From the NCBI GenBank assembly GCA_963700045.1, contig CAVOWK010000032.1, forward strand, positions 113,923 to 177,922: a DNA stretch of 64,000 nucleotides. The letters are read 5' to 3'. The position numbers were made by a program, and so were the translations under genes. Shown piece after piece: positions 17,672 through 50,976 of the stretch. Under the pieces are notes generated by a model. The model had not been told where the DNA came from and made no database searches. It saw only the letters and a program-made list of their open reading frames with translations. The first letter of the stretch is position 1. Every line of letters starts with the position of its first letter. The DNA is from an uncultured Gammaproteobacteria bacterium (GTDB taxonomy: Bacteria; Pseudomonadota; Gammaproteobacteria; Steroidobacterales; Steroidobacteraceae).

Positions 17672-19045
<1,374 letters not shown>

Positions 19046-19070
19046 GGGCTCCTTGCGCGGGCGGGCCCGC

Positions 19071-22353: not shown

Positions 22354-23065
22354 TTACTTCGTCTCGTAGAGCAGGCCGACCGTCGTCAACGTTCGGTGTT
22401 TCCATGCCGGGCTGGACGTCGGTGTTGTGCTGCACCTGGTAACCCACGCGCAGCCCGAGCGCACCCGAGATCGTCATCTCCAGGCCGAGGTCGTTCTGCA
22501 TGTAGGCGTTGTCCGAACCGGTTTCCACGAGGAAGCGGTCGACGAACTTGGTGGTGTCGGTCAGCTGGTGCTCGAAACCAATGTCGCCGCGGAAGATGAC
22601 GCCGTCCTCGGAGTCGCCGGTGTCGCGGATTTCGGCGTAGCGGTAGCCGGGACCGCCCTGCACCCAGAACTTGGTGCGCTCGGTGTCGATGATCTTGTAG
22701 CCGAGACCGCCGGCCAGCGAGGCCTGGTAGTCGTACTGGCTGAAGCGGTCGTCTTCGTAGCGTCCGGCGCCAAAGCGTATGCGCGCTCGGTCAGTTCGTA
22801 CTGGGTCTGCCCGCGCAATTCCCAGCGCTGGGCGGTGGTGCTGCCGCTTTCGCTGCCGTAGTTGCCAGCAAAGCCGAACGTGTACCGGCCAGTTGTCGAC
22901 CGTGTTCTTCAATTCGAGCGCGGCGCTCGCGGCCTGGTTCTCGCTGTTGCCGGTCGCGAACGACGCGCCAATGTTGCCCTTGCCGGTCCAGTCGGCCAGG
23001 GCGGGCGTGGCGCCGCCGCAGAGTGCGAGGGCGATGCAGAACTGGGGGATACGGATCGTCGACAT
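22354..23065 (-). pseudogene. DUF481-type outer-membrane beta-barrel protein, 3 apparent frameshifts
   Basis: Signal peptide MSTIRIPQFCIALALCGGATPALA. Shifts near 22882, 22775 and 22378; frame correction restores ...TTVGLLYETK with TAA at 22354. Confidence 0.7.
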
Positions 23066-23209
23066 GGAGGCTCCTTGCCGGGCTCGAGGCGGAAAAAAAG
23101 GCGCGCGAGTATAGCCGCCCGACCCGTGATTCGCGAAATGCGCCGACCGAGCTCGAACGAGCTTGCATCGGTCTGCGGTGCACGAAGACTTCCCTCTCCC
23201 CGAGCCCGG

Positions 23210-24015
23210 ATGCACCCGATGCCTGAAGCCGCGCAGAAAATCGTCGCCACCGTCGAAAACTTCATGACCGACGTCGTGGAGGCCTCGAACACGAAACCCG
23301 TCCTGGTGGATTTCTGGGCCCCCTGGTGCGGCCCATGCCGCACGCTGATGCCGTTGCTCGACCGGATTGCGGACGATTACGAGGGCCGCTTCATCCTTGC
23401 CAAGGTCAACACCGAAGAGCAGCCGCAACTGGCATCGCATTTCCAGATACGGAGCATCCCGACCGTCCTGCTCATCCACCAGGGCGAGGTGGTCGACCAG
23501 TTCGTGGGCCTGCAGCCCGAACCGGCCATCAAGGCCCTGCTCGACCGGTACGTGACCCCGGCGGGCGCAGTGGTCGAGTCGGTCGCGGCGGCCCGCATCG
23601 CCGACCGGCCCAGGACCTCGCCACGCGACTGCTGGATCAGCGCGAGGCGGAGGGCGCGGCGGCGGCGATCGAGGCACTGGCGGCCGCCCAGGCCGACCAT
23701 CCGCAACTGGGAGCACTGCGGGCGCGGCTCGCATTCGTCCAGGCCGCCAATGCCCAGCCGGACGTCATGTCGCTGCGTGCGGCCCTGGAAGCGAACCCGT
23801 CCGACGCGGCGGCACGGCATGCGCTGGCGGCGCACCATGCGCTGGCAGGCGATTACGGGACGGCCCTGGCCGAGTGGCTGGAATTGATGCGACGCGACAG
23901 GAAGTTCGGTGACGACGCCGGACGGCGGGCGCTGATGCAGGCGTTCGAGGTGCTGGGCGAGCAGGACCCGCTCGTCACGCAATACCGGCGCCGCATGGCG
24001 AGCTTATTGCATTGA
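23210..24015 (+). pseudogene. cnoX: thioredoxin-domain plus TPR chaperedoxin (YbbN/CnoX-like), apparent frameshift near 23600-23615
   Basis: The thioredoxin fold with WAPWCGPC is in the first frame. The TPR-like C-terminal half (…LAGDYGTALAEWLELMRRDRKFGDD...) is in the frame of ORF 23326-24015. Confidence 0.8.
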
Positions 24016-24046
24016 TGTCTCCGGTTGCTGGTCGTGGAATACCGCC

Positions 24047-24076
24047 TTGCGCGACTCGCCGCGACCGAAGTATAAA
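24047..24076 (+). promoter_or_regulatory. possible sigma70-type promoter for the small acidic ORF
   Basis: TTGCGC (24047-24052), 18-nt spacer, TATAAA (24071-24076), about 30 nt upstream of ATG 24106. Confidence 0.35.
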
Positions 24077-24105
24077 AACGCGCACCTTGCCCACTGGGTT
24101 TTTCG

Positions 24106-24360
24106 ATGCACGAGAAGCCGGAATCAGCGGACGAGTTCGAGGACGAGGACACCGAGGAAGCCGTCGGGGGCGATGAAGCCCTCGACGTCGATCGCCTCAT
24201 CCAGGACCTCGACAAGCGCAAGCGCGGCGCGCCGAAAGGCGCGGAGCCCGCGTGGCGCAAGCTCGAACGCATGATGGAACAGAAGCGCACGTCGGAGTTG
24301 CTGAGCGACTTCGACGACTACGACGTGGGCGACCGCCCGCGGCCGCGCAGAGGTCAGTGA
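24106..24360 (+). CDS. small acidic hypothetical protein (84 aa)
   Basis: ORF with an acidic N-terminus and a basic/acidic helix ([25 protein letters not shown]). It resembles small PA3496-like proteins, recalled from memory only. Its 3' end overlaps the dnaE2 stop by 7 nt. Confidence 0.45.
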
Positions 24361-27300
24361 AAATCGCGCGAGGCCGAGCGTAACCGGCCGAGCCAGCGGC
24401 TCAGGTCGACGAGCCGGTGCGCGATCACGTGCATCACCTCTCCTTCCCGTTGCAGCCTGCCGGCCAGGCCCAGCAGGCGTGAGCCGATCAAGGCCTGGCG
24501 TTGCCGTTCGGCCACGTCGCGCCAGACGATCAGGTTGATCGAGCCATGCTCGTCCTCGAGCGTCACGAACGTGACGCCTTCGGCGCTGCCCGGCCGCTGT
24601 CGCGTGATGACGAGGCCCGCGGTGCGCACGTTCGAGCCGTTCGTCAGCGAACGCAGCCGCGCGGAATCGACGAAACCGCGGGCACCGAGCTGGTCGCGCA
24701 GCACTGCGATCGGGTGACGCCGCAGCGTGAGGCCCGTATGCGCGTAATCGGCCACGATGTCTTCGCCTTCGCGGGGCGCGCGCAACAGCGGGATTCCTTC
24801 GGCGATGCGCACCTCGGGCAGGATGGGCAGCGGGCCCTCGAGGCCGGCCACCTGCCAGGCCGCGCGGTGACGGTGCCCGCCGAGACCCGCCAGCGCGCCC
24901 GCCGCCGCCAGGCAGCCCATCGAACGACGATCGAGGCTGGCCTGCTCAGCCAGTTGCTGCGCGCTCTCGAACGCAACGCCCTGCCTGCGCGCGCGCGCAT
25001 CGACCAGCCGCTGCGCCGCCTCCTCCGCCAACCCCTTCACCAGCCGCAGGCCGAGCCGCAGCGCGGGATCGGGCGAATCGTCGGCGCGGTGCTCCAGCGT
25101 GCAGTCCCAGTCGCTGGTGCGCACGTCGATCGGGCGCACCTCGACGCCGTGGCGCTGCGCGTCCTGCACGATCTGCGACGGCGCATAAAAGCCCATCGGC
25201 TGGCTGTTGATGAGCGCGGCCGCGAAGGCCGCGGGCTCGTGCCGCTTGAGCCACGCCGAGACGTACACGAGCAGCGCGAAGCTGGCCGCGTGCGACTCCG
25301 GGAAGCCGTATTCGCCGAAACCGAGGATCTGCTGGAAGATGCGCCGCGCGAACTCCTCGGAGTAACCGCGCTCGCGCATGCCGTGGATCAGCCGCTCCTC
25401 GAAGTGCCCGAGGCCGCCCTTGCGCTTCCACGCCGCCATGGCGCGCCGCAACTGGTCCGCTTCGCCCGGCGTGAATCCCGCCGCGACGATCGCGAGCTGC
25501 ATCACCTGCTCCTGGAAGATCGGCACGCCGAGCGTGCGCTTCAGCACGCCCTCCACCTCTGCGCTGGGATACGTGACCGCCTCCTCGCCCGCGCGCCGGC
25601 GCAGGTAGGGATGCACCATGTCGCCCTGGATCGGGCCGGGCCGGATGATCGCGACTTCGATGACGAGGTCGTAGTACGAGCGGGGCCGCAGCCGCGGCAG
25701 CATCGCCATCTGCGCGCGCGACTCGATCTGGAACACGCCCACGGTGTCGGCGTGGCCGATCATGTCGTAGACCGCCGGGTCTTCGGCGGGCACGGTCGCG
25801 AGTGTCCAGCGCTGGCCGCGGCAGCCGTGCACGAGGTCGAACGCGCGGCGGATCGCGGCGAGCATGCCGAGCCCGAGCACGTCGACCTTGAGCAGGCCGA
25901 GCGCGTCGAGGTCGTCCTTGTCCCACTGGATCACGGTGCGGTCGGGCATCGAGGCGTTCTCGACGGGCACGAGTTCTTCGAGCAGGTCGCGCGCGATGAC
26001 GAACCCGCCGACGTGCTGCGAGAGGTGGCGCGGGAACCCGAGCACGGTCCGTGCGAGGGTCAATACCCTTGCGAGCACAGGGCTGTCGGGATCAAGGCCT
26101 GCTTCACGCACCCGGGTTTCGTCGATGCGCGAGCCGTCCCACCACTGCATCGAGCGCGCGAGCGCCGCGACCTGCAGCGGGTCGAGTCCCATCGCCTTCG
26201 CCACGTCGCGCAGCGCGCTGCGCGGCCGGTAGCTGATGACCGTTGCAGTCAGCGCAGCCCGCTCGCGGCCGTACTTTGCGTAGATGTACTGGATGACTTC
26301 TTCACGCCGCTCGTGCTCGAAGTCGACGTCGATGTCCGGCGGTTCGTTGCGCTCCCTGGAAATGAAGCGCTCGAACAGCAGCGACATGCGCGCGGGATCG
26401 ACCTCGGTGATGCCGAGACAGAAGCACACCGCCGAGTTGGCTGCCGAGCCGCGGCCCTGGCAGAGAATGTGCCGCGAGCGGGCGAACCGCACGATGTCGT
26501 GCACGGTGAGGAAGTACGGCTCGTACTCGAGCTCGGCGATCAGCGCGAGCTCGTGCTCGATCGCCTGTCGCGTCGGGGCAGGCACGCCTTCCGGCCAGCG
26601 GTGACTTGCGCCCTCCTCCGTGAGGCGCCGCAACCACGCGGCCGGCGTGTAACCTTCCGGCACGATCTCGCGCGGATATTCGTAACGCAGCTCGTCGAGC
26701 GAGAACGTGCAGCGCGAGGCGATCTCCACCGCAGCGGCGAGCAGCTCGGGCGGATGCAGCTCCGCGATGCGCTGGATCGGGCGCAGGTGACGTTCGCCGT
26801 TCGGAAACAGCGCGAGCCCCGCCTGCTCGACCGTGGTGCCGATGCGCGTCGCGGTGAGCACGTCCTGCAGCGCGCGGCGGCCGCGCGAGTGCATGTGCAC
26901 GTCCCCGGCGGCGACGAGCGGCAGTTCGAGTTCGCGGCCGAGGCTCTGCAATTGCTCGAGTCGCCTGCGATCACGTCCGGTCGTCAGCAGTTCGACCGCG
27001 ATCCAGAGCTGGCCGGGAAAGAGCGTGGCGAGCCAGCGTGCTGCGGCAGCGTCGGGTTGCGTTGCGGGCAGCCACAGGCACAGCAAAGGGGTTAGGGGAT
27101 AGGGGTTAGGGGTTAGTCGGAAGTTGCTGGCAACGCCAGCTTCGTCACTAACCCCTAACCCCCAACCCCTATCCCCTGCCGCGATTTCTTCGAAATCATG
27201 GCGGCACAGCCGGTATTCGCCCTTCTTCGCGGCGCGTCGCCCGCGAGTGATCAGCCGGCAGAGACGACCGTACCCCGCGCGATCCCGCGCGAGCAGCACG

Positions 27301-27521
27301 CAACGCAGGCCGTCCTCGAGACGAAACTCCGCACCGACAATGAGCTTGAGGCCGTGCTCGCGGGCAGCGACATGCGCCCGCACGACGCCGGCCACCGAGC
27401 ACTCGTCGGTGATCGCAAGCGCGGCATACCCGAGCTTCGCCGCGCGCTCGACCAGTTCCTCTGGACGCGAGGCGCCGCGCAGGAAACTGAAGTTGGAAAG
27501 ACAATGCAGTTCGGCGTACAC
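24354..27521 (-). CDS. dnaE2: error-prone DNA polymerase DnaE2 (ImuC)
   Basis: 1055 aa. PHP N-terminus [18 protein letters not shown] and full-length pol III alpha-like similarity, last gene of the imuA-imuB cassette. Confidence 0.95.
27088..27176. repeat. 89-nt G-rich imperfect palindrome in frame inside dnaE2
   Basis: Arms 27088-27117 and 27147-27176 are 27 of 30 nt complementary and are built of GGGGTTA/GGGGATA units. The 29-nt spacer itself folds (GCTGG/CCAGC). It encodes ...[27 protein letters not shown]... Confidence 0.75.
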
Positions 27522-27578
27522 GGCAATCGCGTCGAGCCTGGCTCAGTGCGACGCGCGGCAGGCTGGCGGACCGGCGAG

Positions 27579-29233
27579 TCACGCGAACCAGCCGTGCAGG
27601 AACCAGCGGGCGCCTGCGGTCGTCTCGCGGCGCTTGCGGAACACCCACAACCGGGCGCCCTGCGCATTGCGGGCGATGTAGTAATCACGCGCGACGTCGT
27701 GACCGTCCCACCAGCCGGATTCGATGCACTCGGGGCCTTCTTCGAGAACGAGCCGGTCAACATCGCAGGGCTCGGGCCGGTCGAGCAGCCAGAGCGGCCG
27801 GCCCGTCGCCCGGCCTTGCGGCCGACTCTCCCATCGAAATGGGAGAGGCACGGAGGGGGACTCTCGTTCGGTGCGGCACTGCGTGACGGCGCTTGCTTCC
27901 GTGCCCTGGGTTTCGTCGCCGCCGGCTCGACGGCGCGCCACGCCGCCTCGGGTCGATGCTCGGGCACGCAGGCGAGTCCGTGCACGGCATCGTTGCCGAG
28001 CCGCGCACGCAGCCGCTCGACGAGCTGCGGCAGGTTCCCGCCGGATTCGCGCCGGTCATGCGCAAACAACTCGATCGCATCGGCCTGCAGGTCGATGAGC
28101 GGGCCGCTCAGCAGGCGCACGTTGCGCACGGGTTGCGGCAGCACGAGCTGCGCAAGACGCTCGCGCAGCAGCTCCGCCATGTGCCGCGGCTGCGCACCGA
28201 CCGGCTGCACGAAACGCAACCGCACGCGCGTGACCGGGGCAGCACGATGACGCAGCTGCACTTCGATCGCCTGCACGCCACGGCCACGCTCGCGCAGGAA
28301 CTGGCACAGTTCTTCGAGCAGGGGGGCGAGCGCCAGGCCGAGCCGTGCGGTATCGGCGATTTCGGGTTCGAGGTCGCGCCGCGCGGCAAAGCGTTCGCTT
28401 GCGGCATACGCCGCGCGCGGCTCCTGCACACGACCCGTGGCGCGATCGAGCGTGGCAAGCAGCTCCTGGCCGAAGCGGCGCGCGAAGCCATCGCGCGGCA
28501 GGCGCAGGCAGTCGCCCACGGTGCGCACGCCCATGGTGCCGAGCGTCTCGATGCTGCGTTCGGGCCACCGGGTGCAATCGAGCGGCAGCGGCGCAAGCCG
28601 CGCAGCCAGTTCGTCCCGGTTGCGTACGAACACGGGTCGCGCGCCGAGCGGACCCGCGCGCGCGAACCACAGCGATGCCAGCGGCGACGGCGTGATCGCA
28701 AAGCGAGCCGTCGCGCCCGTGGCATCGGCGAGTTCCTGCTGCAATCGCAGGCACAGCTGCCTGGCGCCGCCAAACAGCCGCAGGCTGCCACGCACCTCGA
28801 GCAGTACGCCGTCGGGCGGCTCGAGGCTGACCCGCGGCGTGAATCGCACGCCGCGCTGCGCCACCGCCTCGAGCAACTGGCGTTCGCGCCGTGCATCGCG
28901 CGCCAGCGCATGCAAGCCCGGCACGAGTGCGAGCGCTGCGTTGATCGACATTCCCTCGCGCACGCCTGCGGCGTGCACGGCTTCTGCGCAGGCGCGCACG
29001 ACCTTGCCGTTGCGCTCGAGGTCGACGATGGCGACAGGCGGACGACCCGGCAGGGCAAGCGCCACGTCGCGCAGCGAATCGAGCAGCAATGACGGCAGGT
29101 GAATGGCGAGCCAGAGTTCACGCGGGCGCGATTGCGCGAGCGGTGTGCGGCCCGGAACGGAAAGCGAAGACGGACGAAATGCCGGCGTGACCCGCACACG
29201 GTGGGGAGACGGGGGCCTGGCGAGCGGAGCCAT
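27579..29233 (-). pseudogene. imuB: Y-family polymerase-like protein ImuB, apparent frameshift in a G5/C5 run at 27855-27859
   Basis: ELWLAIHLPSLLLDSL N-terminus. The true C-terminus (LWLLDRPEP...ESGWWDG...ARDYY...WFLHGWFA) is in the frame of ORF 27579-27941. The long tail of the track ORF overlapping dnaE2 is out of frame. Confidence 0.85.
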
Positions 29234-29234
29234 C

Positions 29235-29942
29235 TCAGTGCCCCAGGTTCACCGTGGCAGGACGGCCTCCGCGGCTTTTGACGATGCGCACCTGCAGGCC
29301 TTCGGTGCCGCCCCCGAGCAGTGCGAGCCGCAACACGGCAGGCGAAGGGGTAAGCCCCGCCTGCAGCGGGCGATACAGCACCGCAAGGCTGCGTGACGCT
29401 TCTGCCGCCAGCTGCAACCGCCGCAAGGCCTGCGGATCGCGGGGATTGAACCAGCCGAGCACGGCGCTGCAAGACTCCGAGCGCAGCGCCTGGTCCATCG
29501 CCCACTCAGTGGCACCTGCGCCGTTGACGACGAGCATGCGCCCGACATCGATGCCCCACGCCGCGAGCGCCGGTGCATACGGGCGATACGGCGGCGAGAC
29601 CCAGGCGATCCAACCCCCGCTGCCCCGGTCATGCGATGGCATGGCAGACCCCGCATGATCGGGGCGCGGTGGCGGATAAATCTCGTCGGCTGCGCCTGCG
29701 TCCCTGCAAAGCGCAGCGAGCGCGGGGAGCAGCAACCGGAGTTCGCCGATGCCCCGCTGATCGGACAGGATTTCGATGAGACCCTGCCGCGGCCAGCCGG
29801 TGCCCGGGAGGCAACGGTCGAGCGCAGCGTAGCCCGTGGGCAGTCCTGAAGGCACGGCCGCAGCCGCGCTACTGCCCGTTTCCCGCGCACGCCACAGACG
29901 CGCGGAATTCTGTTGCAGCAGTTGTTCGACGGAAACGCTCAT
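29235..29942 (-). CDS. imuA: translesion-synthesis protein ImuA (RecA/SulA-like)
   Basis: 235 aa with PTGYAALDRCLPGTGWPRQGLIEIL, positioned between lexA and imuB. Confidence 0.8.
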   Translation of the reverse strand: MSVSVEQLLQQNSARLWRARETGSSAAAAVPSGLPTGYAALDRCLPGTGWPRQGLIEILSDQRGIGELRLLLPALAALCRDAGAADEIYPPPRPDHAGSAMPSHDRGSGGWIAWVSPPYRPYAPALAAWGIDVGRMLVVNGAGATEWAMDQALRSESCSAVLGWFNPRDPQALRRLQLAAEASRSLAVLYRPLQAGLTPSPAVLRLALLGGGTEGLQVRIVKSRGGRPATVNLGH

Positions 29943-29985
29943 GGTCGCTGGTGGATCGCTGGCCAGCAGAAATATCAGGGAGCAG

Positions 29986-30606
29986 TCAGGACAATCGGTG
30001 CGTGTCCTGCCGCACCACGCCGACGACGAGGCCTTCGATGGTGAGCGACTGCTCGCGCAGGTCGATACGCAGGGGTTCGAAGTCTTCGTTCTCGGGCAGC
30101 AGCCAGGCGATCGAGCCGTCCTGCCGGTAGCGTTTCACGGTGACCTCGTTCTCGAGGCGCGCGACGACTATCTGGCGGTTGCGGACTTCGGGCGTGCGGT
30201 GGACTGCGACGAGATCGCCGTCGAGGATGCCGACGTTGCGCATGCTCATGCCTTTGACCTTGAGCAGGTAATGCGGCCGCGGCTGGAAGAGCGCCGGGTC
30301 GATCTGGTAGCGCGCTTCGATATTCTCTTCGGCCAGGATGGGCCGGCCGGCGGCGACCCGGCCGATCAACGGCAGGCCGATCTGGTCACGCAGGGAATCC
30401 TTGAGCTGAATGCCGCGGGAGGCCCCGGGGCGCAGTTCGATGACGCCTTTGCGCTGCAGGGCGCGCAGATGTTCTTCGGCCGCGTTCGCGGACTTGAAGC
30501 CCAGGGCTTCGGCGATTTCGGCCCGCGTGGGGGGCAGGCCCTGTTCGGCCAGGCTGTCCTGGATGAACATAAGCACCTGGCGTTGGCGCGGTGTCAGGTC
30601 TTCCAT
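29986..30606 (-). CDS. lexA: LexA repressor
   Basis: 206 aa: wHTH N-terminus, AG cleavage site (VAAGRP), S24 peptidase Ser/Lys (GMSM ... KRY). Confidence 0.95.
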
Positions 30607-30619
30607 CGGTCGTCCCTCC

Positions 30620-30635
30620 CTGTATACCCATACAG
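30620..30635. promoter_or_regulatory. SOS box 1 (CTGT-N8-ACAG)
   Basis: CTGTATACCCATACAG, 14 nt upstream of the lexA start. Confidence 0.8.
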
Positions 30636-30638
30636 TTA

Positions 30639-30654
30639 CTGTTTATATATACAG
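30639..30654. promoter_or_regulatory. SOS box 2 (CTGT-N8-ACAG)
   Basis: CTGTTTATATATACAG, 3 nt from box 1. The AT-rich core could overlap a -10 element. Confidence 0.8.
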
Positions 30655-31010
30655 CTCCACCTGTCTGTTGGCAAGCGGGAGGAAAAAGTTTATTGGGCAA
30701 AGACCGACACCCCGGGCAAGGCGGCCACACCACACTCTTGCACGAACTCCGGCAACCGCGTCCTGCGGCGAATGCCGGGAAATCCAGAGCCAACTGCAAC
30801 GCTTGTCAGCGGCGGCACGCGGCCAGTGGCTGCTCCCCCGGTTGTCGAATGAGAACCCCTCGCATGCGACGTACAGCACAGTAATCTTTATCGTCGTTTT
30901 CGAATGAGTTAGTCTCTCGCTGTTCGGCTGCGCTGCGCACACGGAAGGGTGTCGTGGAGTTGCCGCCGCCACACTGCCTTGCCTGATTCAAAAACCGAGG
31001 AAGATCACCA

Positions 31011-31334
31011 ATGAAGACCGCTATCGCCAAGATCCTGACCGCCACTGCCGCCGCCGTCGTGCTCGCCGCCGCCACGGGCTGCGTCAGCCAGTCGAAGTTT
31101 GACGAGCATGTGGCCAGCGCCGATGCGGCCATCAAGGCTGCCGCTGCTGACGCCGCCGCCGCCAAGGCTTCTGCCGACGCCGCTGCCGCTTCGGCTTCGA
31201 GCGCCGCCAGCAACGCGAGCAGCGCGCAGAGCACGGCCAACCAGGCCCTGCAGGCCGCGCAGGCTTCGCAGTCCTGCTGCGACGCGACCAACGAGAAGAT
31301 CGATCGCGCGTTCAAGAAGTCGATGGGCAAGTAA
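31011..31334 (+). CDS. Lpp/OprI-type alanine-zipper lipoprotein
   Basis: Lipobox AATGC, an Ala-rich coiled coil and a C-terminal Lys (…KKSMGK), as in Braun-lipoprotein-like proteins. Confidence 0.75.
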   Translation: MKTAIAKILTATAAAVVLAAATGCVSQSKFDEHVASADAAIKAAAADAAAAKASADAAAASASSAASNASSAQSTANQALQAAQASQSCCDATNEKIDRAFKKSMGK

Positions 31335-31364
31335 TCGACTGACTCCATCGCTCTGCGATACGAA

Positions 31365-31396
31365 GACGCCGCGGACCTCCGCGGCGTTTTCTTTTC
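31365..31396 (+). terminator. rho-independent terminator after the lpp-like gene
   Basis: GC stem ACGCCGCGGA/TCCGCGGCGT followed by TTTTCTTTT. Confidence 0.65.
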
Positions 31397-31466
31397 AGCA
31401 GCGCTTGCGGGCCAGCCAGTGCGGGCAGCGTTGCACTGACATGGCGGCAGATCGCCGAGCGTTGGG

Positions 31467-41536: not shown

Positions 41537-41802
41537 TCGATTTTTTCCACGATGACCCGGCCATCTGCGCCCACGAACACGCGATACCGATTGCCGTTCT
41601 CGCACGAGGCGACGTAGTCGTCCTTTCCCTGTTGGGTGGCGCTGACGACGTTACCGCACGGCAGCCCGTGCAATGCAATCACGGCCGTCAGGTCCTTGGT
41701 GACCGAAACGTCGCCGGGAGTTTCTTCCACGGCCAGCGCCGATCCCGCGAACCCTGTCGTCACGACTCCGACCAGGGCCAATGTCCCTGCACGTATGCTC
41801 AC
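41533..41802 (-). CDS. small secreted hypothetical protein
   Basis: 89 aa with a signal peptide. Its GTG start overlaps the upstream gene's stop (GTGA). Confidence 0.5.
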   Translation of the reverse strand: MSIRAGTLALVGVVTTGFAGSALAVEETPGDVSVTKDLTAVIALHGLPCGNVVSATQQGKDDYVASCENGNRYRVFVGADGRVIVEKID

Positions 41803-42551
41803 GGTGTTGCTCCTGCCATCAGATTGGATTCGGTGAATTTCCTCGGGTCCTCGAGGATGCTCCAGATTGCGGCGCGCGACTTGACGATGTCCCGGGCCAG
41901 CGGCGGATCGCTGTCCTGGAGCAGCGAAAGCACCTTGAGGAGCAGCATGTCGTAGTCGCGGCGCAGTTCCGCGAGCGTCGCCGTGCCCTGCCGCTTGTGG
42001 TAAGCGCGGAACTTATCCACCAGGTCGTCGACTTGGTTCTTGAGCGCAAGCTTGGTCAACACGCCGATGGCCTTGGTTTCCCGGAGTCGCGACGCGAGCG
42101 ACTTGAAGTCCAGCGGCGCGGGGGACGCCTGCGGTGCGGCAGGAACAGCAGCAACCTTTGGCATCGCCTGCGGTGGGGGCACGGTCACCGCCGTAACGGC
42201 AGCTACCGGCCTCGGTGGCGGCTTGGGTGGCGCGACCGTCGTGACCGGTGCGACCCTGGCGGGGACTTTGGGGACTGCGACTCGCGCGGCCGGAGCGGGC
42301 TCCACGGGGCGCACAGGCTGAACCGCCGGCGGCGGGGCCGGAAGCACGGGCACTTCGGCAACGGCGGGTGCGACCTCCACTTGCGGCACCGCCGGTACGG
42401 GCGCCTCCTCGACTACTGCAACTGGCGCGGACGGCGACGCAACCGGGACCGTCGTCGGCACGTGCCTGACCCCGGCGCATCCTGCGGCGACAAAGCAGGA
42501 GACCGTAAGCACCATGCTCGCGGAACGCGACATCGCTGCACAGCGGAACAT
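41799..42551 (-). CDS. lipoprotein with Pro/Ala/Val-rich linker and a helical C-terminal domain (hypothetical)
   Basis: Lipobox VAAGC, about 120 aa of PAV-rich repeats, then a conserved-looking C-terminal ~100 aa. Confidence 0.55.
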   Translation of the reverse strand: MFRCAAMSRSASMVLTVSCFVAAGCAGVRHVPTTVPVASPSAPVAVVEEAPVPAVPQVEVAPAVAEVPVLPAPPPAVQPVRPVEPAPAARVAVPKVPARVAPVTTVAPPKPPPRPVAAVTAVTVPPPQAMPKVAAVPAAPQASPAPLDFKSLASRLRETKAIGVLTKLALKNQVDDLVDKFRAYHKRQGTATLAELRRDYDMLLLKVLSLLQDSDPPLARDIVKSRAAIWSILEDPRKFTESNLMAGATP

Positions 42552-42572
42552 CGGTCTCTCCGGGTCGGCGTT

Positions 42573-42788
42573 CTACGAGAACCACGAGTCGTCGGCTTTG
42601 GCCTGCCAGGCGGTGAGCTGCCTCTCAGCTTCGTCCTTGGCCACGCCGTAGCGCTCCTGGATCTTGCCGGCAAGCTGGTCGCGGTGACCAGCGACAACTT
42701 CCAGGTCATCGTCGGTCAACTTCCCCCACTGCACCTTGGCCTTGCCGGCCACTTGCTTCCAGTTTCCTTTGATGCGGTCCCAGTTCAT
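42573..42788 (-). CDS. CsbD family stress-response protein
   Basis: MNWDRIKGNWKQVAGKAKVQWGKLTDDDL..., with a GGAGA RBS before ATG 42788. Confidence 0.85.
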   Translation of the reverse strand: MNWDRIKGNWKQVAGKAKVQWGKLTDDDLEVVAGHRDQLAGKIQERYGVAKDEAERQLTAWQAKADDSWFS

Positions 42789-42853
42789 GGGTTTCTCCTT
42801 TGTCCATGAGCAATCGAAGCTTGCACGTGTCTCCGGCACATTCGGCCTTGAGC

Positions 42854-43846
42854 CTACCGGAGCGTTGAACCGTCACGAGTCATGGCGGCGCTGACCAATG
42901 CTGGCCGGGCACGCCGGCAGGCCTTCGCGCTCAGCAACGCAAAATCCGCCTTTTTCATCAGCGTCTCGGCATCCGTGCCATCGCCGGGATAAACCGCGAT
43001 CCCGACACTCGCCGTCACGCGCAGATCCCGGCCTTCGATGCGGTGCGGCGCGGCGATTCGGGCGCGCAGTGCATCCGCAGCGCATGCCACGTCCTCGGCA
43101 CAGGCCACTTCAGACAGCAGAACGACAAATTCATCGCCACCGAGTCGACTCACGGTGTCCGATTTGCGCACTCCCGCCACCAGTCGACTCGCGACTGACT
43201 GCAGCACCTGGTCGCCGACCGCATGACCCAGTCGATCGTTGATGCGTTTGAAGCGGTCAAGGTCCACGAACAATACGGCCAGCTGGTTGCCATGGCGACA
43301 CGCTGTTGCCATGGCCCGGTCGAGCCGGTCGGTCAGCAGCATCCGGTTGGGCAGGCCCGTCAGAACGTCGTGTTGCGCCAGATGCGACATTCGCAGCGAC
43401 AAAGCGCGCGCCGCACCTACATCGTGAAACACGATCACCGCGCCAGTCACGTTTCCGTGCCGGTCATGAATCGGGGTGGCAGTGTCTTCGATCGCAGATT
43501 CACGCCCATCCCGGCCGATCAGCAGACAGTTCTCGCCCACACCGACACTGGTGTCACGCTGCACCGCCAGGGCCAGCGGATCCCGGGCGGGCTCACGACT
43601 GTCCGCGTCGATGATCCGCATCACTTCCGGCAGTGGTCGGCCGGTCGCCTCCCAGGTGGACCAACCGGTCATGCGCTCGGCGACCGGATTCATGTACGTG
43701 ACGTTGCCCGCCAGGTCGGTGCTCAGAACGGCGTCCCCGATCGAGTCGAGCATCACTTGCGCGCGCTCTCCGGCCACGCGCGATGCTTCGAGGGTGGCGC
43801 CGACACTATTGAAGTTCGCCTGGACAAGCAGTTTCCTGCGGGGCAT
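42854..43846 (-). CDS. PAS-domain diguanylate cyclase (GGDEF)
   Basis: PAS (MLDSIGDAVLSTDLAGNVTYMNPVAERMTGW) followed by an RLGGDEF active site. Confidence 0.9.
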   Translation of the reverse strand: MPRRKLLVQANFNSVGATLEASRVAGERAQVMLDSIGDAVLSTDLAGNVTYMNPVAERMTGWSTWEATGRPLPEVMRIIDADSREPARDPLALAVQRDTSVGVGENCLLIGRDGRESAIEDTATPIHDRHGNVTGAVIVFHDVGAARALSLRMSHLAQHDVLTGLPNRMLLTDRLDRAMATACRHGNQLAVLFVDLDRFKRINDRLGHAVGDQVLQSVASRLVAGVRKSDTVSRLGGDEFVVLLSEVACAEDVACAADALRARIAAPHRIEGRDLRVTASVGIAVYPGDGTDAETLMKKADFALLSAKACRRARPALVSAAMTRDGSTLR

Positions 43847-43854
43847 CAGCGCTC

Positions 43855-44292
43855 TCAGTGGATCGTGGCTACGGCCCGCATGATCCTGCGACCGGCTCTC
43901 ATAGTCTGTGCGCCAGCGGACATTGGGCGGAACGGTTGCGTCGGCGACTGCGTGCGATCCGTGGACCCATGGACAGACCTTCCCGGGTCGTCGACAAACG
44001 CGCGCACGAGCAGCGCGCCGTGCTCATGCAGCACTGGAATACAGACTTTCTGCGCATCCAGGATGCGCAGGAGCGCATTGAGCGGGCGGTCTTTCATAGC
44101 CTGCACGGTGAAGCCCGTGAGGTCGAGCGTCAGGATGGCCCGGCGGTACAGGTACTTGGCATCCAGAGTGTCATGACTGATGGAACCCTCCTGCAGCGCG
44201 AGCAGGTCGCGATAAACCTCTTCCGTCCAACCATTGCAGCTGGCCAGGGCAGCGGGAGTATCCAGCAGCGGAAACGGCAGTTTGTCTTTCAT
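43855..44292 (-). CDS. small hypothetical protein with a class III nucleotidyl-cyclase-like N-terminal motif
   Basis: ATG 44292 with a GGGAG RBS, 17 nt after the cpdA stop. RRAILTLDLTGFT ... EHGALLVRAFVDD resembles the metal-binding beta1/beta4 region of cyclase homology domains, but the domain looks incomplete. Confidence 0.45.
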   Translation of the reverse strand: MKDKLPFPLLDTPAALASCNGWTEEVYRDLLALQEGSISHDTLDAKYLYRRAILTLDLTGFTVQAMKDRPLNALLRILDAQKVCIPVLHEHGALLVRAFVDDPGRSVHGSTDRTQSPTQPFRPMSAGAQTMRAGRRIMRAVATIH

Positions 44293-44309
44293 GTGGGCTC
44301 CCAAGGTCA

Positions 44310-45119
44310 TCAAAAACGGTCGTCGGGCGGCCGTTCGGCCACTTCCCAGTCCTGCAGCCACCGCACTTCCGTCCGCACCTGGCCATCGGGCAGCAGCTCC
44401 AGCCAGCGATATCCCGGCGGCCTGAGGTCCATCACGCAGTGCTCGGTGAGCGGCGTGAATTGCGCGCAGGTCGAAGGCGTCGCGAGCACGAGCGTGTGTC
44501 CGTGCCGCCGCTCGAACGCCTGGTGCACGTGACCACCGAGTACGGCACGCACGGTCGGATACCGCTCGATGACGGCCAGAAACTCACAGGCATTGCGCAA
44601 GCCCACGCCATCGAGCCAGGTGCTGCCGACGGGCAATGGCGGATGATGCAGACACACGAGGAGCGGCCGGTCGCCGAAGGCCTGCAGCGCCGACTCGAGG
44701 CGCAACAGTTCCTTCGATTCGACTCTGCCTTCGGGGCGGCCATGCACGTGCGTGTCGATGAACACCGCACCCCACGCGCCGAATTCAGCCGTGCCGCCGT
44801 ACTGGAACCCATCGCCGCCCACCAGGTCGACCATCAGGTCCGGCTCATCGTGATTGCCGGGCAGGCAGAACACAGGCAGGTCGTACGGACGCAGTGCGCG
44901 GCGGAAATTGTCGTAGGCGGCGGCGCTGTGATCGTCGGCGATGTCGCCAGTCACGAGAATCGCAGCAGGCCGCGGCGTCCCGGGTGCGAAAGCCTCGGCC
45001 AGCACCCTGCGCAACGAGACTGCGGTCGTCACGCCGTAGATTTTCCTCGTCTCATCCCCGAACAGGTGAGGATCGGTGACCTGCAGCAGCCGCACGGAAT
45101 TGCCAAGCGATCCGATCAT
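44310..45119 (-). CDS. cpdA: 3',5'-cyclic-nucleotide phosphodiesterase CpdA (class III, metallophosphoesterase)
   Basis: LLQVTDPHL, GDIADD, GNHD, LHHPP and GHVH motifs. The ATG at 45119 is chosen because upstream residues belong to a GAF domain. Confidence 0.85.
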   Translation of the reverse strand: MIGSLGNSVRLLQVTDPHLFGDETRKIYGVTTAVSLRRVLAEAFAPGTPRPAAILVTGDIADDHSAAAYDNFRRALRPYDLPVFCLPGNHDEPDLMVDLVGGDGFQYGGTAEFGAWGAVFIDTHVHGRPEGRVESKELLRLESALQAFGDRPLLVCLHHPPLPVGSTWLDGVGLRNACEFLAVIERYPTVRAVLGGHVHQAFERRHGHTLVLATPSTCAQFTPLTEHCVMDLRPPGYRWLELLPDGQVRTEVRWLQDWEVAERPPDDRF

Positions 45120-45281
45120 GGCGCGGGCCGGGCGGCCGTCACGCCGATTGAGCAGTTGTGTCACGGCGAACACCGCACCGCTGCTATCCTGCAGGGGCAG
45201 GCACAGCATGGAACGCGTGCGGAAGCCAGTCTCGGCATCGACTGCCTGGTTGAAACGCGGGTCGGCGTAGGCATCGTCGAC

Positions 45282-46355
45282 TCACACCACCTCGCCCGAC
45301 ATTGCCGCAGCGCCCGCGATGCCGCTCGCCAGCGGAATGCGCACATATTCTCCTTCCGGCATGTCCTGCGCGGCGCGCAGCGCGAGCTGCTGGCGCTCGC
45401 GGTCGACCAGGAACAGCGACGCGCGTTCTGCCTCGAGCAGCTCGCCGACCCGGCGCGTAAAGACGCGCAGCGACTGCTCGAGCATGCTCTGGTAGGCCTC
45501 GTCGCTCGCCAGTGCGGTCGCTTCGAGGAACTTCTGCGACTGCTGCGTAAGCTCCTGCAGCGTGCTGCGGAACGCAGTCTCGTCCATCGCATCGACCAGC
45601 TGCTCGATGTGCTGCCGGTCGGTGTTCTGGGCCAGCAGGTGCATCATCTGTTGCGTATTGGCGATGACGGCATCGGTGAAGGTGGCGAGCTTGCCGTCTT
45701 CGAGGTGCACGATTCGATCGGCAACGTCGAGTATGCGGCTGTCGTGCGTGACCAGCAGGATGGTGGTGCCCCGCTCCCGGGCCAGTGCCTGCATGCGATC
45801 GACGACCTCGCGGCCCGAGGCTTTGTCGAGCGACGCGGTAGGCTCGTCTGCGAGCACCATGACCGGCTCGCCGACCAGGGCGCGCGCAATGGCCACGCGC
45901 TGGCGCTGGCCACCGGATAGCTGCTCCGCGCGCTTGTGAGTGTGCTCGCCAAGACCGACTGCCTCCAGCATTGCATCAGCCTTGCGTCGAAGCTCGGCAC
46001 GTGCGGCGCGACCGGTCACGCGCAGGCCGAGCTGCACGTTTTGCGAAGCAGTCAATGCGCCGAGCAGGTTGTGGCTCTGGAAGATGAAGCCGATACGCTT
46101 GCGGACGTCTTCTAGAGCCGTGCGATTTGCGCCGTCGAGCTGGTGACCGAGCACACGCAGGCGCCCCTCCTGTGGTGCACGCAACGCACCGACGAGCGTC
46201 AGCAGTGTCGTCTTGCCAGAACCCGACGGCCCGGTGACGATGACGATCTCGCCAGCGGGAATCGTCGTCGTCACGTCGTGCAGGATCTGCCGACGCAGTG
46301 GGCCCTTGCCGTAAGTAGTGATTGAGGTTCTCGACGACGACCGGCGGGTCCGCAC
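45282..46355 (-). CDS. DevA-type ABC ATP-binding protein with C-terminal linker and the first part of a GAF domain
   Basis: Walker A GPSGSGKTT, LSGGQRQR and LADEPTASLD, then about 120 extra residues ending in GAF-like LFLVDRERQQL...IPLASGIAGAAAMSGEVV before TGA 45282-45284. Confidence 0.8.
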   Translation of the reverse strand: MRTRRSSSRTSITTYGKGPLRRQILHDVTTTIPAGEIVIVTGPSGSGKTTLLTLVGALRAPQEGRLRVLGHQLDGANRTALEDVRKRIGFIFQSHNLLGALTASQNVQLGLRVTGRAARAELRRKADAMLEAVGLGEHTHKRAEQLSGGQRQRVAIARALVGEPVMVLADEPTASLDKASGREVVDRMQALARERGTTILLVTHDSRILDVADRIVHLEDGKLATFTDAVIANTQQMMHLLAQNTDRQHIEQLVDAMDETAFRSTLQELTQQSQKFLEATALASDEAYQSMLEQSLRVFTRRVGELLEAERASLFLVDRERQQLALRAAQDMPEGEYVRIPLASGIAGAAAMSGEVV

Positions 46356-46364
46356 TGCCAGGCA

Positions 46365-47546
46365 TCAGAAGACCTCCGCCGGGTCGAGGCGACGCACCTT
46401 GCGCAGCGCCAGGAAACCGGAGAGCGCGCACATCACGAGCGTCAGCACGAACACCGTGAGTGCCCGATCGGTCGTCAGGTGCAGCGGCAAACGGGTCGCG
46501 TGCGCAGCCGATCGGTAGAGGAACCACGCCGCGGCCATGCCCGGCAGGTAGCCGAGCACGGCGAGTATTGCTGCCTGCTGCAGCACGATGCCGGACACGA
46601 ATCGATTGCGATACCCAATGGCCCGCAGCGTGGCGTACTCACGCAAGTGCTCGGACACGTCGGCGAACAGGATCTGGTAGACGATGATCGCGCCGACCAC
46701 CAAGCCCATGATCGCGCCGAACGCGAACACGTAACCGATCGGCGTCGCCCCGTTCCAGTACGCCTTCTCGCGGGCGGCGAAGTCGGCCTTGGTCATGACC
46801 AGCACGTCCGCGGGCAGGTAGGAGCGCAGGCGATCGCGCGCGGAATTCGCATCGACGCCCGGCTTCAGCGTCACCAGGCCCAGCTGGATCTGGTTGCGCG
46901 ACCGGTCCGGAAACAGCCGCAGCCAGTTGTCGACGCTGGTGAGCACCGTGCCATCGATGCCGAACGAAGGGCCGATCTCGATCAGTCCGACCACCGAGAC
47001 CGCACGATCGTTAATCTCGGTGCTGACCGGCGCATCCGGGCGCCAGCTCTCCCCCACCGGCCCGAATTCCGGCCGCGACGCCCGGTCGAACAACACGACG
47101 TCCTGTGCAGCCAGCCTGGAATAGTTGTCCGCGAAGCCCGGCGTATCGAGCACGTTACGGGTGGGGTCGATGCCGACCGCATTGATGCTGCGGCGGGCGT
47201 TGGTCCACGGGTTCTTCCACGTCGCCGGAAAGACGTAGACCGGGCTCACCGACTCGACGTCGGGTGAACCCATCGCCTCGTACAGGCGGCGGATCGTAAA
47301 CGGCGCCGGCCGCACGATGAAGACACTGTCCGTACTGAAGAGCGCAATGTCGTAGCGGAAACGCTCGTGGAATCGCAACGTGCTCTCGAACAGCGCCGAG
47401 CGAAAGCCGAGCTGCATCAGGATCAGCAGCACGGCGAACGCGATGCCCGCCACCGCGACGGTGAGCCGCAGCGGCTTGTGCCACAGTTGCAACCACCCGA
47501 GCGGGGCGGAGGGCAGCAGCCGGCTCCACGTGCGCTCAACGGCCAA
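46365..47546 (-). CDS. DevC-type ABC exporter permease (FtsX-like)
   Basis: N-terminal LGWLQLWHKPLRLTVAVAGIAFAVLLILMQLGF and C-terminal FtsX helices. Start uncertain (TTG 47546 proposed; the upstream track extension overlaps devB). Confidence 0.75.
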   Translation of the reverse strand: MAVERTWSRLLPSAPLGWLQLWHKPLRLTVAVAGIAFAVLLILMQLGFRSALFESTLRFHERFRYDIALFSTDSVFIVRPAPFTIRRLYEAMGSPDVESVSPVYVFPATWKNPWTNARRSINAVGIDPTRNVLDTPGFADNYSRLAAQDVVLFDRASRPEFGPVGESWRPDAPVSTEINDRAVSVVGLIEIGPSFGIDGTVLTSVDNWLRLFPDRSRNQIQLGLVTLKPGVDANSARDRLRSYLPADVLVMTKADFAAREKAYWNGATPIGYVFAFGAIMGLVVGAIIVYQILFADVSEHLREYATLRAIGYRNRFVSGIVLQQAAILAVLGYLPGMAAAWFLYRSAAHATRLPLHLTTDRALTVFVLTLVMCALSGFLALRKVRRLDPAEVF

Positions 47547-48517
47547 TCTCGACCTCCACCTGGAGGTTCGTGAGGTTCGCAGCCGCGCGGCCGTCGTCGA
47601 GCTTGATCTCGACCTCGACGATGCGCGCATCCTTGCGGGCAACGGGGTCATCACCGATCTGGTCGATCTTCTGCACTTTGGGGCGAATGCGCGTCACGGT
47701 GCCGGTGAGGTCCTGCGGCAGCGCCGGGCTGCGCACCAGCGCGCGCTGGCCGCACTCGCACGCGGCGGACGTCGGCTTCGAAGACCTCTGCGACCGCCTG
47801 CATCTGGTCGACGCGTGCAAGCTCGAGAACACCCTCCATGCCGACGATTTCGCCGGGCCGGCGCCGCACGTCGATGACACGACCGGCGAAGGGAGCGCGG
47901 ACGAACGAGCGCTCGAGTTCCGTCTCGAAGCGCGTCACGCGCGCGGTGGCTGCGCTGATACGCGACTGCGCGACACTGGCCGAGGCACGTCGCGCCTTGC
48001 ACGAAGCCACGCCGGCATCGGCATCGCCCTTGGCTTGCTCGGCGTCCTCGCTCGAGGCGAGTCCGCGGCCCAGCAGGTCCTGCTTGCGCTTCGAGCGCTT
48101 GGCCGCAACGTCGGCAAGCACGCAGGCCTCATCCGCGAGGCTGACGGAGGCGGTGGCATCGCGCTTCGCGGTCTCGAGCTCGGCTTTTGCTTCGACGATG
48201 CGGCTGCGCGCCAGCGCCGCGGTGTCGACCTCGGCCAGCAGTTGACCCGCCGTCACGTCCGAGCCGCGGTCGACCAGCAGTCTGCTCAAGATCGCGCCCG
48301 ACATCGCGTCGGGCGTCGAGGCGGCCGCGACGCGGACGATGCCACCGTACGGTTCGATGCGACCGAGCGCCGCCACTCCCCGCGCGCCAGCAGCCGTCTT
48401 CATGACGGCGTCCGCCCCTGCCGCAGCGGCTCGTGCGGGCTGGCACCCGATCGCCCAGGCAATAATCGTCAGCACAGCCGCACGCGCGGGTCGCCCGATC
48501 CGGATTGAATGCTGCAA
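47536..48517 (-). pseudogene. DevB-type membrane fusion (HlyD family) protein, apparent frameshift near 47765-47772
   Basis: TTG 48517 preceded by AGGGGGGA, then a TM helix, coiled coil and beta-barrel. The C-terminal piece (GQRALVRSPALPQDLTGTV...LQVEVEIGR) is in the frame of ORF 47536-47880. Confidence 0.75.
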
Positions 48518-48560
48518 GTTCCCCCCTGCTTTGCCGGCCCTGCGGCCGAGTAACTTCGAC

Positions 48561-50372
48561 TCAGCCCTGCGGCGACCAACCTTCTGCGATCGCCTTTTGC
48601 GCTTCGCGATATCCGACTTCGACGACGCGGTCGAAGTTGCGCACTTCCGTGAAGCTGAAACCACCCACCGGCGGCCGCACCAGCAAGTCCGCGCGCGCCC
48701 CGGCCGCTCGTGCAGAACCGATCGCGCCGATCGACATCGCCATCAGCATCAACGACACCGGGCTCGGCACGCGATAACGCTTGGAGAGCGGCAGCACACG
48801 ACCGGCGAGCACGCGCCAGGGCGAAGGCACGGAATCGTAATTGACCGTGTAATCCTTGCGCGAACTCAGGTCGACGGCGATCACGCGACCGACGGGACGG
48901 GCCCGCATGAGGTCGACCGGCAGGTTATCGAGGATGCCGCCGTCGACGGACAGTTGGCCGTTGATCACGGCCGGCGGGAAGATACCGGGCAGCGACACGC
49001 TTGCGCGCAACGAGCGCGGCAAGGAGCCCCGATCGTGCACCTGCACACGGCCATTGCCGAGGTTGCTGGAGACGCAGAAGAACGGCACCGGCAGGTCTTC
49101 GATTTCGCCCGGCAAATGGGCATCGATCAGGCGCTCCATGCGTCGTCCGCGCAGGAACGAGATGATCGGCAGGGTCACGTCGCCAAACGGTTTGCCGTCC
49201 ACGAACGCTTTGCGCGCACGCTCGATGACAACCCCTGGCTCCAGTCCCGTCGCCATGCCGGCCGCCATGACGGCGCCGATGCTGGCGCCACCGAGCCAGT
49301 CCACCGGTATGCCGGATTCATACAACGCACGATAGACGCCCAGATGTGCAAACCCGCGAGCGGCGCCACCACCGAGCACGAGCCCGACGGCGCGCCCTGC
49401 GATGACACGGGCGAGGCGGTCGAGGTCGCCCAGGATGCCGGATCGAACGTGCAGGTGAAAATCCAGCTTGCGTGGCGCCAGCCACGCAGCCGTTCCAGAC
49501 AGTGTCTCGCCGTGCTGCTCGTGCCACAGCACCAGGGCACGACGTGCGACGGGGGCATTGGTCTCGTCGAATGCCTGCACTTCCCAGGATCGGGGTGCGG
49601 CATCATCACCGGCCTGCCCGACCAGGAGGATGAGGTCGGCGTTGTGGAGCGCCATGTCGGTAAAGACACCGTCGGCCGGATTCGCCACGTACATGATGAA
49701 GCGATTCTCGTCTTCCTTGACGGCAAGCCAGTCGACCAACGCCGGCGACTGGTCCTGGTGTCGCGCTGCCGGCAAGGCAGGCGCACCCGCGTCGCGCATT
49801 GCCGTGGCGGACAGGACGCAGGTTGGTCCGTACAGCTGCAGCGCCGCGCCGAGTTTCGCCGCAAGGACCTCGGCCGATTGCACCGAACCCAGCGGCACCA
49901 GTGCGATCGTCTTCAGGTTACGACGGATGTGCGAGACGCCGGCGGTCCGATCGCGCAACCGACCAGCGATACCGCCCGCGATGTGGCGCGTGAGATCGGG
50001 CCGCTGCCGGGCGAGCCGATCGAAGGCGGCAGAGGTCATCTTCAGCAACAGGCTGTTGCGCACGGCGCGGATGCTTGCGGATCGCGCCCCGCCGGTGAGC
50101 ATGCCGATTTCGCCGATGGTCTCTCCGGGGTTGACCTCGGCCACGAGCCGTTCGCCGGATTCCTGGCCATTGGATTGTGCCAGCCAGACCTGCATGCGAC
50201 CTCGCGCCAGCAGGAACAGGCAATCGGCTTCGTCACCCTGGCGGAACAGCCAATCGCCACCGCGGCACACGCATGGCTCGAACTCGTCGAGCACCAGCGC
50301 GGCTTCATCCCCGGGAATCGAAAAGTATTGCTGCAACGCCGTGACCAGCGTCGCTCGCGCGGCTGAATTCAT
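48561..50372 (-). CDS. cyclic-nucleotide-binding domain plus patatin-like phospholipase
   Basis: N-terminal CAP-type cNMP domain (GETIGEIGMLTGGARSASIRA), then patatin GGGAARG oxyanion and GASIG nucleophile motifs and a downstream DGG. Confidence 0.88.
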   Translation of the reverse strand: MNSAARATLVTALQQYFSIPGDEAALVLDEFEPCVCRGGDWLFRQGDEADCLFLLARGRMQVWLAQSNGQESGERLVAEVNPGETIGEIGMLTGGARSASIRAVRNSLLLKMTSAAFDRLARQRPDLTRHIAGGIAGRLRDRTAGVSHIRRNLKTIALVPLGSVQSAEVLAAKLGAALQLYGPTCVLSATAMRDAGAPALPAARHQDQSPALVDWLAVKEDENRFIMYVANPADGVFTDMALHNADLILLVGQAGDDAAPRSWEVQAFDETNAPVARRALVLWHEQHGETLSGTAAWLAPRKLDFHLHVRSGILGDLDRLARVIAGRAVGLVLGGGAARGFAHLGVYRALYESGIPVDWLGGASIGAVMAAGMATGLEPGVVIERARKAFVDGKPFGDVTLPIISFLRGRRMERLIDAHLPGEIEDLPVPFFCVSSNLGNGRVQVHDRGSLPRSLRASVSLPGIFPPAVINGQLSVDGGILDNLPVDLMRARPVGRVIAVDLSSRKDYTVNYDSVPSPWRVLAGRVLPLSKRYRVPSPVSLMLMAMSIGAIGSARAAGARADLLVRPPVGGFSFTEVRNFDRVVEVGYREAQKAIAEGWSPQG

Positions 50373-50498
50373 TCCTCGCCCCGAACTCTATAGTCTTTTC
50401 GTTATATCGACCAAGAAGCCAGGCGAGCCGTCCTGGCAGCGCGTTCCCCCTGACGCATCAACCCGGGGAGTCTAGCCGTATTGCGACGTGTCGTCGCG

Positions 50499-50976
50499 TC
50501 AACGGACTCCCGACCTGTGACGGACCTCAGCCAGCAGGCCCTCGACCGCAGATTCGACCAGGTCGAGCACCTCGTCGAATCCCCTGGTGTCGCCGTAATA
50601 GGGGTCGGGCACATCGGTCGGGCGCCGTACTGCCGGCAAACTCGAGCAGCGTGCGAATGCGCTCGCGATGCTCGGGCGGGCTGCGGTCGAGCAAGGTCGC
50701 GTGATTCAGGCGATCCATCGCAACGATCAGGTCGAAGCGCTCGAAATCGTCGTCATGCACCTGCCGTGCCCGCAGGTCCGTGAGGTCGATGCCCCGGCGG
50801 GCGGCAGCGTCGATCGTACGCGGATCGGGCGGCTCACCCACGTGGTATGCGTGAGTGCCGGCGGAGTCGATCTCGATCTCGAGACCCGGGGCGTACCGGC
50901 GAGCGTGCGCCCGGAAAACGCCTTCGGCGGTGGGCGATCGGCATATGTTGCCCATGCAGACGAACAGAATTTTCAT
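50499..50976 (-). pseudogene. low-molecular-weight protein-tyrosine phosphatase, apparent frameshift near 50620-50640
   Basis: MKILFVCMGNICRSPTAEG P-loop. The C-terminal DVPDPYYGDTRGFDEVLDLVESAVEGLL is in another frame, ending at TGA 50499-50501. Confidence 0.8.

Follow-up and report, generated by a model that had tools for sequence, protein, structure and literature searches.

Why is a reading frame that otherwise runs from a transporter ATPase through a GAF domain into a phosphodiesterase gene interrupted by a single TGA? This question is raised by the devA-GAF and cpdA genes of an uncultured gammaproteobacterium of the Steroidobacteraceae. They lie on the minus strand of a 64,000-nucleotide stretch of contig CAVOWK010000032.1 (assembly GCA_963700045.1), which was analyzed as a whole and is called the window here. 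An earlier note, made from the sequence alone, had listed three possible explanations, namely an error of base calling, a mutation that truly inactivates the gene, and programmed splitting or readthrough. Based on comparison with related genomes, the stop codon is most probably a genuine CGA to TGA nonsense mutation in a decaying devA-GAF gene, and the frame leading into cpdA most probably a side effect of a deletion.

The reading frame was examined by translation of 44310-46367. It spans about 46310 to 44312-44310, where cpdA stops, and the lone internal stop is the TGA at 45284-45282. The residues before the stop are AAAMSGEVV; the TGA stands between GIAGAAAMSGEVV and VDDAYADPRFNQ, and past it the frame is free of stops via LLNRRDGRPARAMIGSLGNSVRLLQVTDPHL to the end of cpdA. 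Translation thus bears out two observations of the earlier note, namely that one in-frame TGA separates the listed open reading frames 45282-46355 (opening at GTG 46355) and 44310-45209, and that the frame continues unbroken from the GAF sequence into cpdA. With the TGA read through, Pfam and NCBIfam models were found in the order ABC_tran/DevA, GAF and Metallophos/CpdA; the scores along this chain were 308-309 bits with TIGR02982 and 216-218 bits with NF008359. The segment 45285-46310 reached 309.5 bits with the DevA family model TIGR02982 (cut-off 295.8), a score that gives the sequence class of the devA remnant and is no proof of function; the remnant also matches PF00005. The GAF model PF01590 reached its threshold only when the TGA was read through (profile positions 2-112 of 133). 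Taken singly, the two GAF halves stayed below or just under this threshold, and no single polypeptide contains the complete domain. Likewise, window devA has no uninterrupted frame from native start to native stop. A second devA-GAF copy was not found in the same genome.

Among 31 related genomes searched, five, all of the same genus, contain orthologues. The gene is complete in three of them (G003, G012 and G018) and free of internal stops there. Its product in G003 and G012 is about 447 amino acids long and ends in RRAP or VRRS, and the stop codon overlaps the ATG of a separate cpdA of 269 amino acids (ATGA). In G018, devA-GAF has its own stop, followed by a short gap before cpdA. Almost all of the best 120 protein-search matches were 439-447 amino acids long, and in relatives overall DevA-GAF has 435-447 amino acids and is encoded apart from cpdA. 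All 61 loci with a match covering the GAF domain end in a stop codon of their own. Ten of the 61 carry cpdA directly downstream, each time as a separate gene after the stop codon. A gene fusing GAF and phosphodiesterase was not found in the relatives; where the earlier note had asked whether the two are ever fused, the answer from these loci is that they never are. An alternative frame ending in an ATGA overlap (GCG CCA TGA / ATG ATC), which had been proposed as a second possibility, turned out to be the native arrangement in the orthologues; in the window the corresponding string, GCGCCATGATC, lies at 45123-45113. One locus with a close DevC relative (L106) has only 94% DNA identity and is fully intact. 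It therefore helped to define the ancestral state and has no bearing on 1-bp insertions.

The window copy was then aligned at the DNA level with nine relatives, and this alignment is the basis for three lesions in devA (Table 1). The residue at the TGA position is arginine in six proteins read directly and in the nine aligned relatives, with the exception of L014, which has cysteine. CGA is the codon used by the six closest relatives (G017/L061, L097, L098, L099, L106 and L013), compared with CGG in G003 and CGT in G012. The comparison of orthologues suggested in the earlier note hence returned a sense codon. Judged from these codons, the TGA is a single C-to-T transition from an ancestral CGA (Arg).

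The lesion closest to cpdA explains the continuous frame. Intact relatives have two copies of GCCGCCCG, an 8-bp direct repeat, spaced 95 bp apart, and the window lacks everything between them. The deletion takes the last 32 codons of devA, from FDE to RRAP and the stop, and includes the end of the GAF domain. From the layout of the repeats, it may have arisen by replication slippage or by a microhomology-mediated event. Because the 95 bp (3 x 31 + 2) were lost next to the ancestral ATGA overlap, the devA frame now enters the cpdA frame. As read from the alignment, the apparent devA-cpdA continuity is an arithmetic by-product of this deletion, not design. The view that the TGA splits the GAF domain stands, but the earlier note had overlooked that the domain also loses its C-terminus through the 95-bp deletion. 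It had also overlooked a frameshift near the start of the same gene (46313/46314). Starting from the native ATG at 46365, the shifted frame stops after 131 codons. This T insertion was found in the window only and may be real or assembly noise. None of the nine aligned relatives has the disabling lesions, and the 113 homologues with a length of 430-450 amino acids are intact.

We corroborated two of the lesions with a second assembly. A degenerate pattern that required TGA at codon 361 was scanned against JGI metagenome contigs, and one contig of 4,032 bp (L105) was returned. The first 3,327 bases of L105 correspond to window 53760-50433 at 99.07% identity. The contig then jumps to window 45397 and runs on to 44691. 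It carries the identical TGA and the identical 95-bp deletion, and it shares three substitutions in DevA (V328A, V331A and R394S) and one in CpdA (P5L) that are otherwise unique. The jump is a deletion of about 5 kb specific to L105 (L105:3326-3327; window 45398-50432), which took out devB and devC together with the patatin-like gene and the 5' three quarters of devA; a short microhomology, GCCAG, is present at its junction. Because of the 1% divergence and the deletion of about 5 kb, L105 represents another strain and another assembly. Since both share the TGA and the 95-bp deletion, these are inherited mutations, older than the split of the two strains. Confirmation by independent sequence data thus extends to these two lesions and not to the 1-bp insertions. 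That the sister strain went on to lose the rest of the locus is consistent with a module that was already dispensable.

Two further differences between L105 and the window were recorded. Only one indel was found in 4 kb, at 50622, where an extra G in a G run of the window frameshifts a low-molecular-weight phosphotyrosine phosphatase gene (50527-50976, minus strand); the gene, of 158 amino acids, is intact in L105. The extra G arose by mutation very recently or else is an error of assembly. The cpdA segment (L105:3600-4032 against window 44691-45120) differs by about 5.6%, compared with about 1% in the flank and GAF remnant. The higher divergence of cpdA could come from recombination, from relaxed selection in one strain or from poor sequence at the contig end.

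Signs of decay were also looked at in the substitutions. Changes unique to the window were counted at sites where four relatives agree. For devA, 7 nonsynonymous changes, 1 stop and 7 synonymous changes were found, a nonsynonymous to synonymous ratio (N:S) of 8:7. The corresponding N:S values were 3:9 for devB, 5:7 for devC and 2:6 for cpdA (10:22 combined). The contrast between devA and its neighbors is suggestive only as a sign of decay. Two of the substitutions in DevA, N209S (beside the H-loop) and V331A, affect sites that are conserved in 112-113 of the 113 homologues.

How much of this could be sequence error was assessed by comparison with G003, which is colinear with the window and about 90% identical. 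About 185 one-base gaps were counted, many of them isolated and in otherwise conserved coding sequence. These gaps, which may belong to either of the two assemblies, are dense in 11700-31400 (about one per 300-500 bp, suf genes included) and much sparser in 31-64 kb. A three-way comparison with G017 and G003 over 32 kb left five clean window-specific 1-bp indels, two of them in devB and devA. Given background indels of that size, the 1-bp insertions in devA and devB can be assigned neither to mutation nor to noise. Similar breaks were seen in the relatives: rpoB of G003 is in two frames (L100/L102, G003:C10), G017 has three 1-bp insertions of its own in devC and devA (L006, G017:C8), and the database protein P0074 is a DevA garbled by frameshifts that reads into cpdA. 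Frame-break artefacts thus seem to be common in these related assemblies. As an error yardstick, rpoB was searched in the window's genome by hidden Markov model and by tblastn with the G003 protein, and was absent; the region is therefore lacking from the assembly, which is 90% complete by marker count.

These observations are what speaks for the TGA, the deletion or both having come from faulty sequencing or assembly, in a metagenome-assembled genome (MAG) prone to errors. In addition, the related genomes are Nanopore-only assemblies, those of the MAG series of MFD00905.bin.3.330 having been assembled with Flye and polished in a single Medaka round (PMC12313526). We nevertheless regard such an error as very improbable. 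The base-call error considered in the earlier note is contradicted by the same TGA in a separately deposited contig, which also has the 95-bp deletion and the rare substitutions while differing by 1% and by a 5-kb deletion of its own. Moreover, a loss exactly between 8-bp direct repeats would resemble a mutation rather than a consensus error. Error is viable only for the two 1-bp insertions. For the TGA, a real inactivating mutation is supported by the CGA/Arg codon of the orthologues and by L105. A different objection is that the TGA might remove only a regulatory GAF domain and leave an ATPase of about 340-360 amino acids that still powers DevBC, blind to its ligand. Cyanobacterial DevA has no GAF domain (the matches end at residues 226-247), the window frame is open from codon 19 to 360 with Walker A, LSGGQ signature, Walker B and H-loop all kept, devC is intact, and the GTG at 46355 opens the main frame. 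In contrast, half a GAF domain would probably misfold, and a real T insertion at codon 18 would cut off the native start and give the domain a different first strand. N209S, which alters a residue kept by 112 of 113 homologues, and the devB frameshift also argue against a working ATPase, and the sister strain's deletion of the whole exporter suggests that it was dispensable before. A truncated but active DevA is therefore unlikely in our view, even if it is the better of the alternatives.

Under programmed recoding, readthrough of the TGA, or its decoding as selenocysteine or tryptophan, would give an ABC (ATP-binding cassette)-GAF-CpdA fusion; in favor of this is the frame that stays open across the TGA into cpdA. 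The orthologous residue is arginine (CGA), not cysteine or tryptophan, the 61 loci with their separate stops contain no fusion, and the fusion frame itself is owed to a lineage-specific deletion by which the GAF domain loses its end. SelB was not detected above cut-off in the genome, and for the 76 nt around and after the TGA, folding was no better than in shuffled sequences (z = -0.42). On these grounds a selenoprotein or another programmed recoding of the TGA was rejected, and we give this reading almost no weight. The programmed split or readthrough and the ABC-ATPase-GAF-phosphodiesterase chain envisaged in the earlier note are accordingly not supported. We also rejected an alternative genetic code in which TGA would be a sense codon, since TGA terminates the neighboring devC and cpdA. 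It is also hardly probable that the frame made by the deletion is in use, from an ATG at 45209 or by low-level readthrough, so that a chimera of GAF remnant and CpdA would exist beside a ligand-blind, truncated DevA driving the exporter. If true, this would capture in nature how a sensor fragment becomes fused to a phosphodiesterase through a short deletion over an ATGA overlap.

Several points weigh against a decaying gene with a genuine nonsense mutation. The lesions were judged from assembled sequences, and the independence of L105 from its divergence and its deletion. Scattered 1-bp indels occur in conserved genes of this assembly and of its relatives, so that noise may explain the insertions in devA and devB. 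The N:S contrast stems from small counts, given as raw numbers. Finally, devC and cpdA are still intact, and the decay is therefore recent and partial.

With these points considered, the nonsense mutation in a decaying gene remains our preferred explanation, and the following course of events is proposed. The ancestral locus would have encoded a DevBCA-type tripartite exporter, whose ATPase of 447 amino acids carried a GAF domain and was ATGA-coupled to a separate cpdA. The window lineage would then have gained the nonsense codon and the 95-bp deletion between the two repeats. Both lesions would have preceded the split from the sister strain, which later deleted about 5 kb of the locus. A functional DevA is presumably not made from the window copy.

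Table 1. Positions of devA-GAF, its lesions and the neighboring genes in the window.
Feature	Position	Strand	Evidence
devA-GAF pseudogene (DevA-family ABC exporter ATPase + C-terminal GAF)	45120..46365	minus	TIGR02982, PF00005, intact 447-amino-acid orthologues
Native devA ATG	46365-46363	minus	1-nt overlap with devC stop
Lesion 1: 1-bp T insertion CACTAC[T]TACGGC, codon 18	46313..46314	minus	absent in 9/9 aligned relatives
Lesion 2: nonsense TGA, codon 361 of 447, inside GAF	45282..45284	minus	aligned relatives and L105
Lesion 3: 95-bp deletion junction, one GCCGCCCG copy kept	45129..45136	minus	alignments; same deletion in L105
Ancestral devA stop (TGA of ATGA overlap with cpdA), no longer in frame	45116..45118	minus	orthologues end in RRAP and stop, with ATGA onto cpdA
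cpdA, 269-amino-acid class III cyclic-nucleotide phosphodiesterase-like metallophosphoesterase, frame intact	44310..45119	minus	PF00149, NF008359
Remnant of 214-amino-acid cyclase-like gene after cpdA	43964..44292	minus	~364-bp deletion, scrambled junction ~43964
devC permease, 393 amino acids, intact	46365..47546	minus	TIGR01185 464 bits
devB membrane-fusion adaptor with 1-bp insertion ~47752	47536..48517	minus	TIGR02971 105.9 bits, two stretches
Conserved module	L097:1-5812; L106:720-3530; L099:421-3232; window 42854-50372		

The consequences for cpdA were considered next. CpdA matched PF00149 (Metallophos) with 52.6 bits against a cut-off of 21.5, and NF008359 with 218.4 bits, which lies below the equivalog cut-off of 225. 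An exact-protein look-up of the window CpdA, in forms of 269 and 299 amino acids, found no record. A ribosome translating devA now stops 163 nt upstream of the cpdA ATG, and by eye no obvious Shine-Dalgarno sequence was seen directly before this ATG. With devA termination at this distance, the ancestral coupling by termination and reinitiation would therefore be lost, and the expression of cpdA is probably reduced. By its substitutions, cpdA itself still looks constrained.

The neighboring genes place devA beside devB and devC, as expected for an exporter of this type. The exact DevC protein of the window is on record, on a contig of 326,304 bp. The devB score with TIGR02971 is below the cut-off of 129, and the 1-bp insertion in devB is window-specific, being absent in L097, G003, L061 and L013. 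The 214-amino-acid gene that follows cpdA is intact in L097, L099, L106, G003, G017 and L013. It has no Pfam domain, and a sequence search of the PDB gave only a weak match to an adenylate/guanylate cyclase (E = 0.2); the label cyclase-like is a lead, not a result. Further downstream, window 41571-43986 holds about 2.4 kb (PAS-GGDEF, CsbD and small genes) compared with about 0.4 kb in G003 and G017. The longer stretch is also found in L099 and partly in L097, which is without most of the GGDEF part. Close relatives thus differ in the genes they carry downstream of cpdA.

We compared the locus with known systems. The order devB-devC-devA is the same as in the DevBCA heterocyst-glycolipid exporter of Anabaena, a MacAB-like tripartite system, and the family models of DevA (TIGR02982), DevC and DevB match; the structures closest to the ATPase domain are those of MacB and LolD. 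In contrast to the Anabaena protein of about 230 amino acids, the proteobacterial family, with 435-447 amino acids, adds a linker of about 45 residues and a C-terminal GAF domain of about 160 residues, and the window copy of devA is broken. The GAF domain of an intact orthologue (residues 273-413) matches the cAMP-binding (cyclic adenosine monophosphate) GAF tandem of the cyanobacterial adenylate cyclase CyaB2 (PDB 1ykd) with E = 8.3e-39. Unlike in CyaB2, the domain here is attached to an ABC ATPase and not to a cyclase, and cAMP binding is putative; in the window, it is split by the TGA and its C-terminal part is gone. CpdA aligns with the class III 3',5'-cAMP phosphodiesterase CpdA of E. coli (NF008359) over profile positions 12-265 of 275 and has the metallophosphoesterase fold, but the window score is just under the equivalog cut-off and the activity is putative. 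The eukaryotic GAF-regulated phosphodiesterases have a different, class I catalytic domain. These enzymes (PDE2, 5, 6, 10 and 11), to which the earlier note had likened the readthrough chain, resemble the locus only in having GAF sequence beside a cyclic-nucleotide phosphodiesterase. The analogy fails, since CpdA is a metallophosphoesterase, GAF and CpdA are separate genes in every intact relative, and the fusion frame is a deletion artefact. No notable difference was found to ordinary bacterial pseudogenes, which show the same premature stops, deletions between short direct repeats, multiple lesions and later loss of the locus in sister strains.

The window devA-GAF is most probably an ordinary pseudogene of a familiar kind. 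By itself the finding matters little, as ordinary gene decay lies behind a correctly observed stop codon. For annotation, devA-GAF should be marked as a pseudogene, and no cpdA fusion of 299 or 684 amino acids should be called. The locus also illustrates that a lesion in an indel-rich assembly can be validated without reads, by means of a second public assembly. In intact relatives, a conserved module comprises a cNMP-binding (cyclic nucleoside monophosphate) patatin lipase, devB, devC, devA-GAF, the ATGA-coupled cpdA and the 214-amino-acid gene. A scan of about 185,000 species genomes, which put the window's organism with MAGs of the Steroidobacteraceae, revealed that GAF-bearing DevA is widespread, with members in Lysobacterales, Woeseiaceae, Wenzhouxiangellaceae, Binatia and others; no characterized function for the family appeared in the library names returned or in the literature searched. 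The domains of the module suggest a cyclic-nucleotide-gated DevBCA-type exporter, and this intact family is biologically more interesting than the pseudogene itself.

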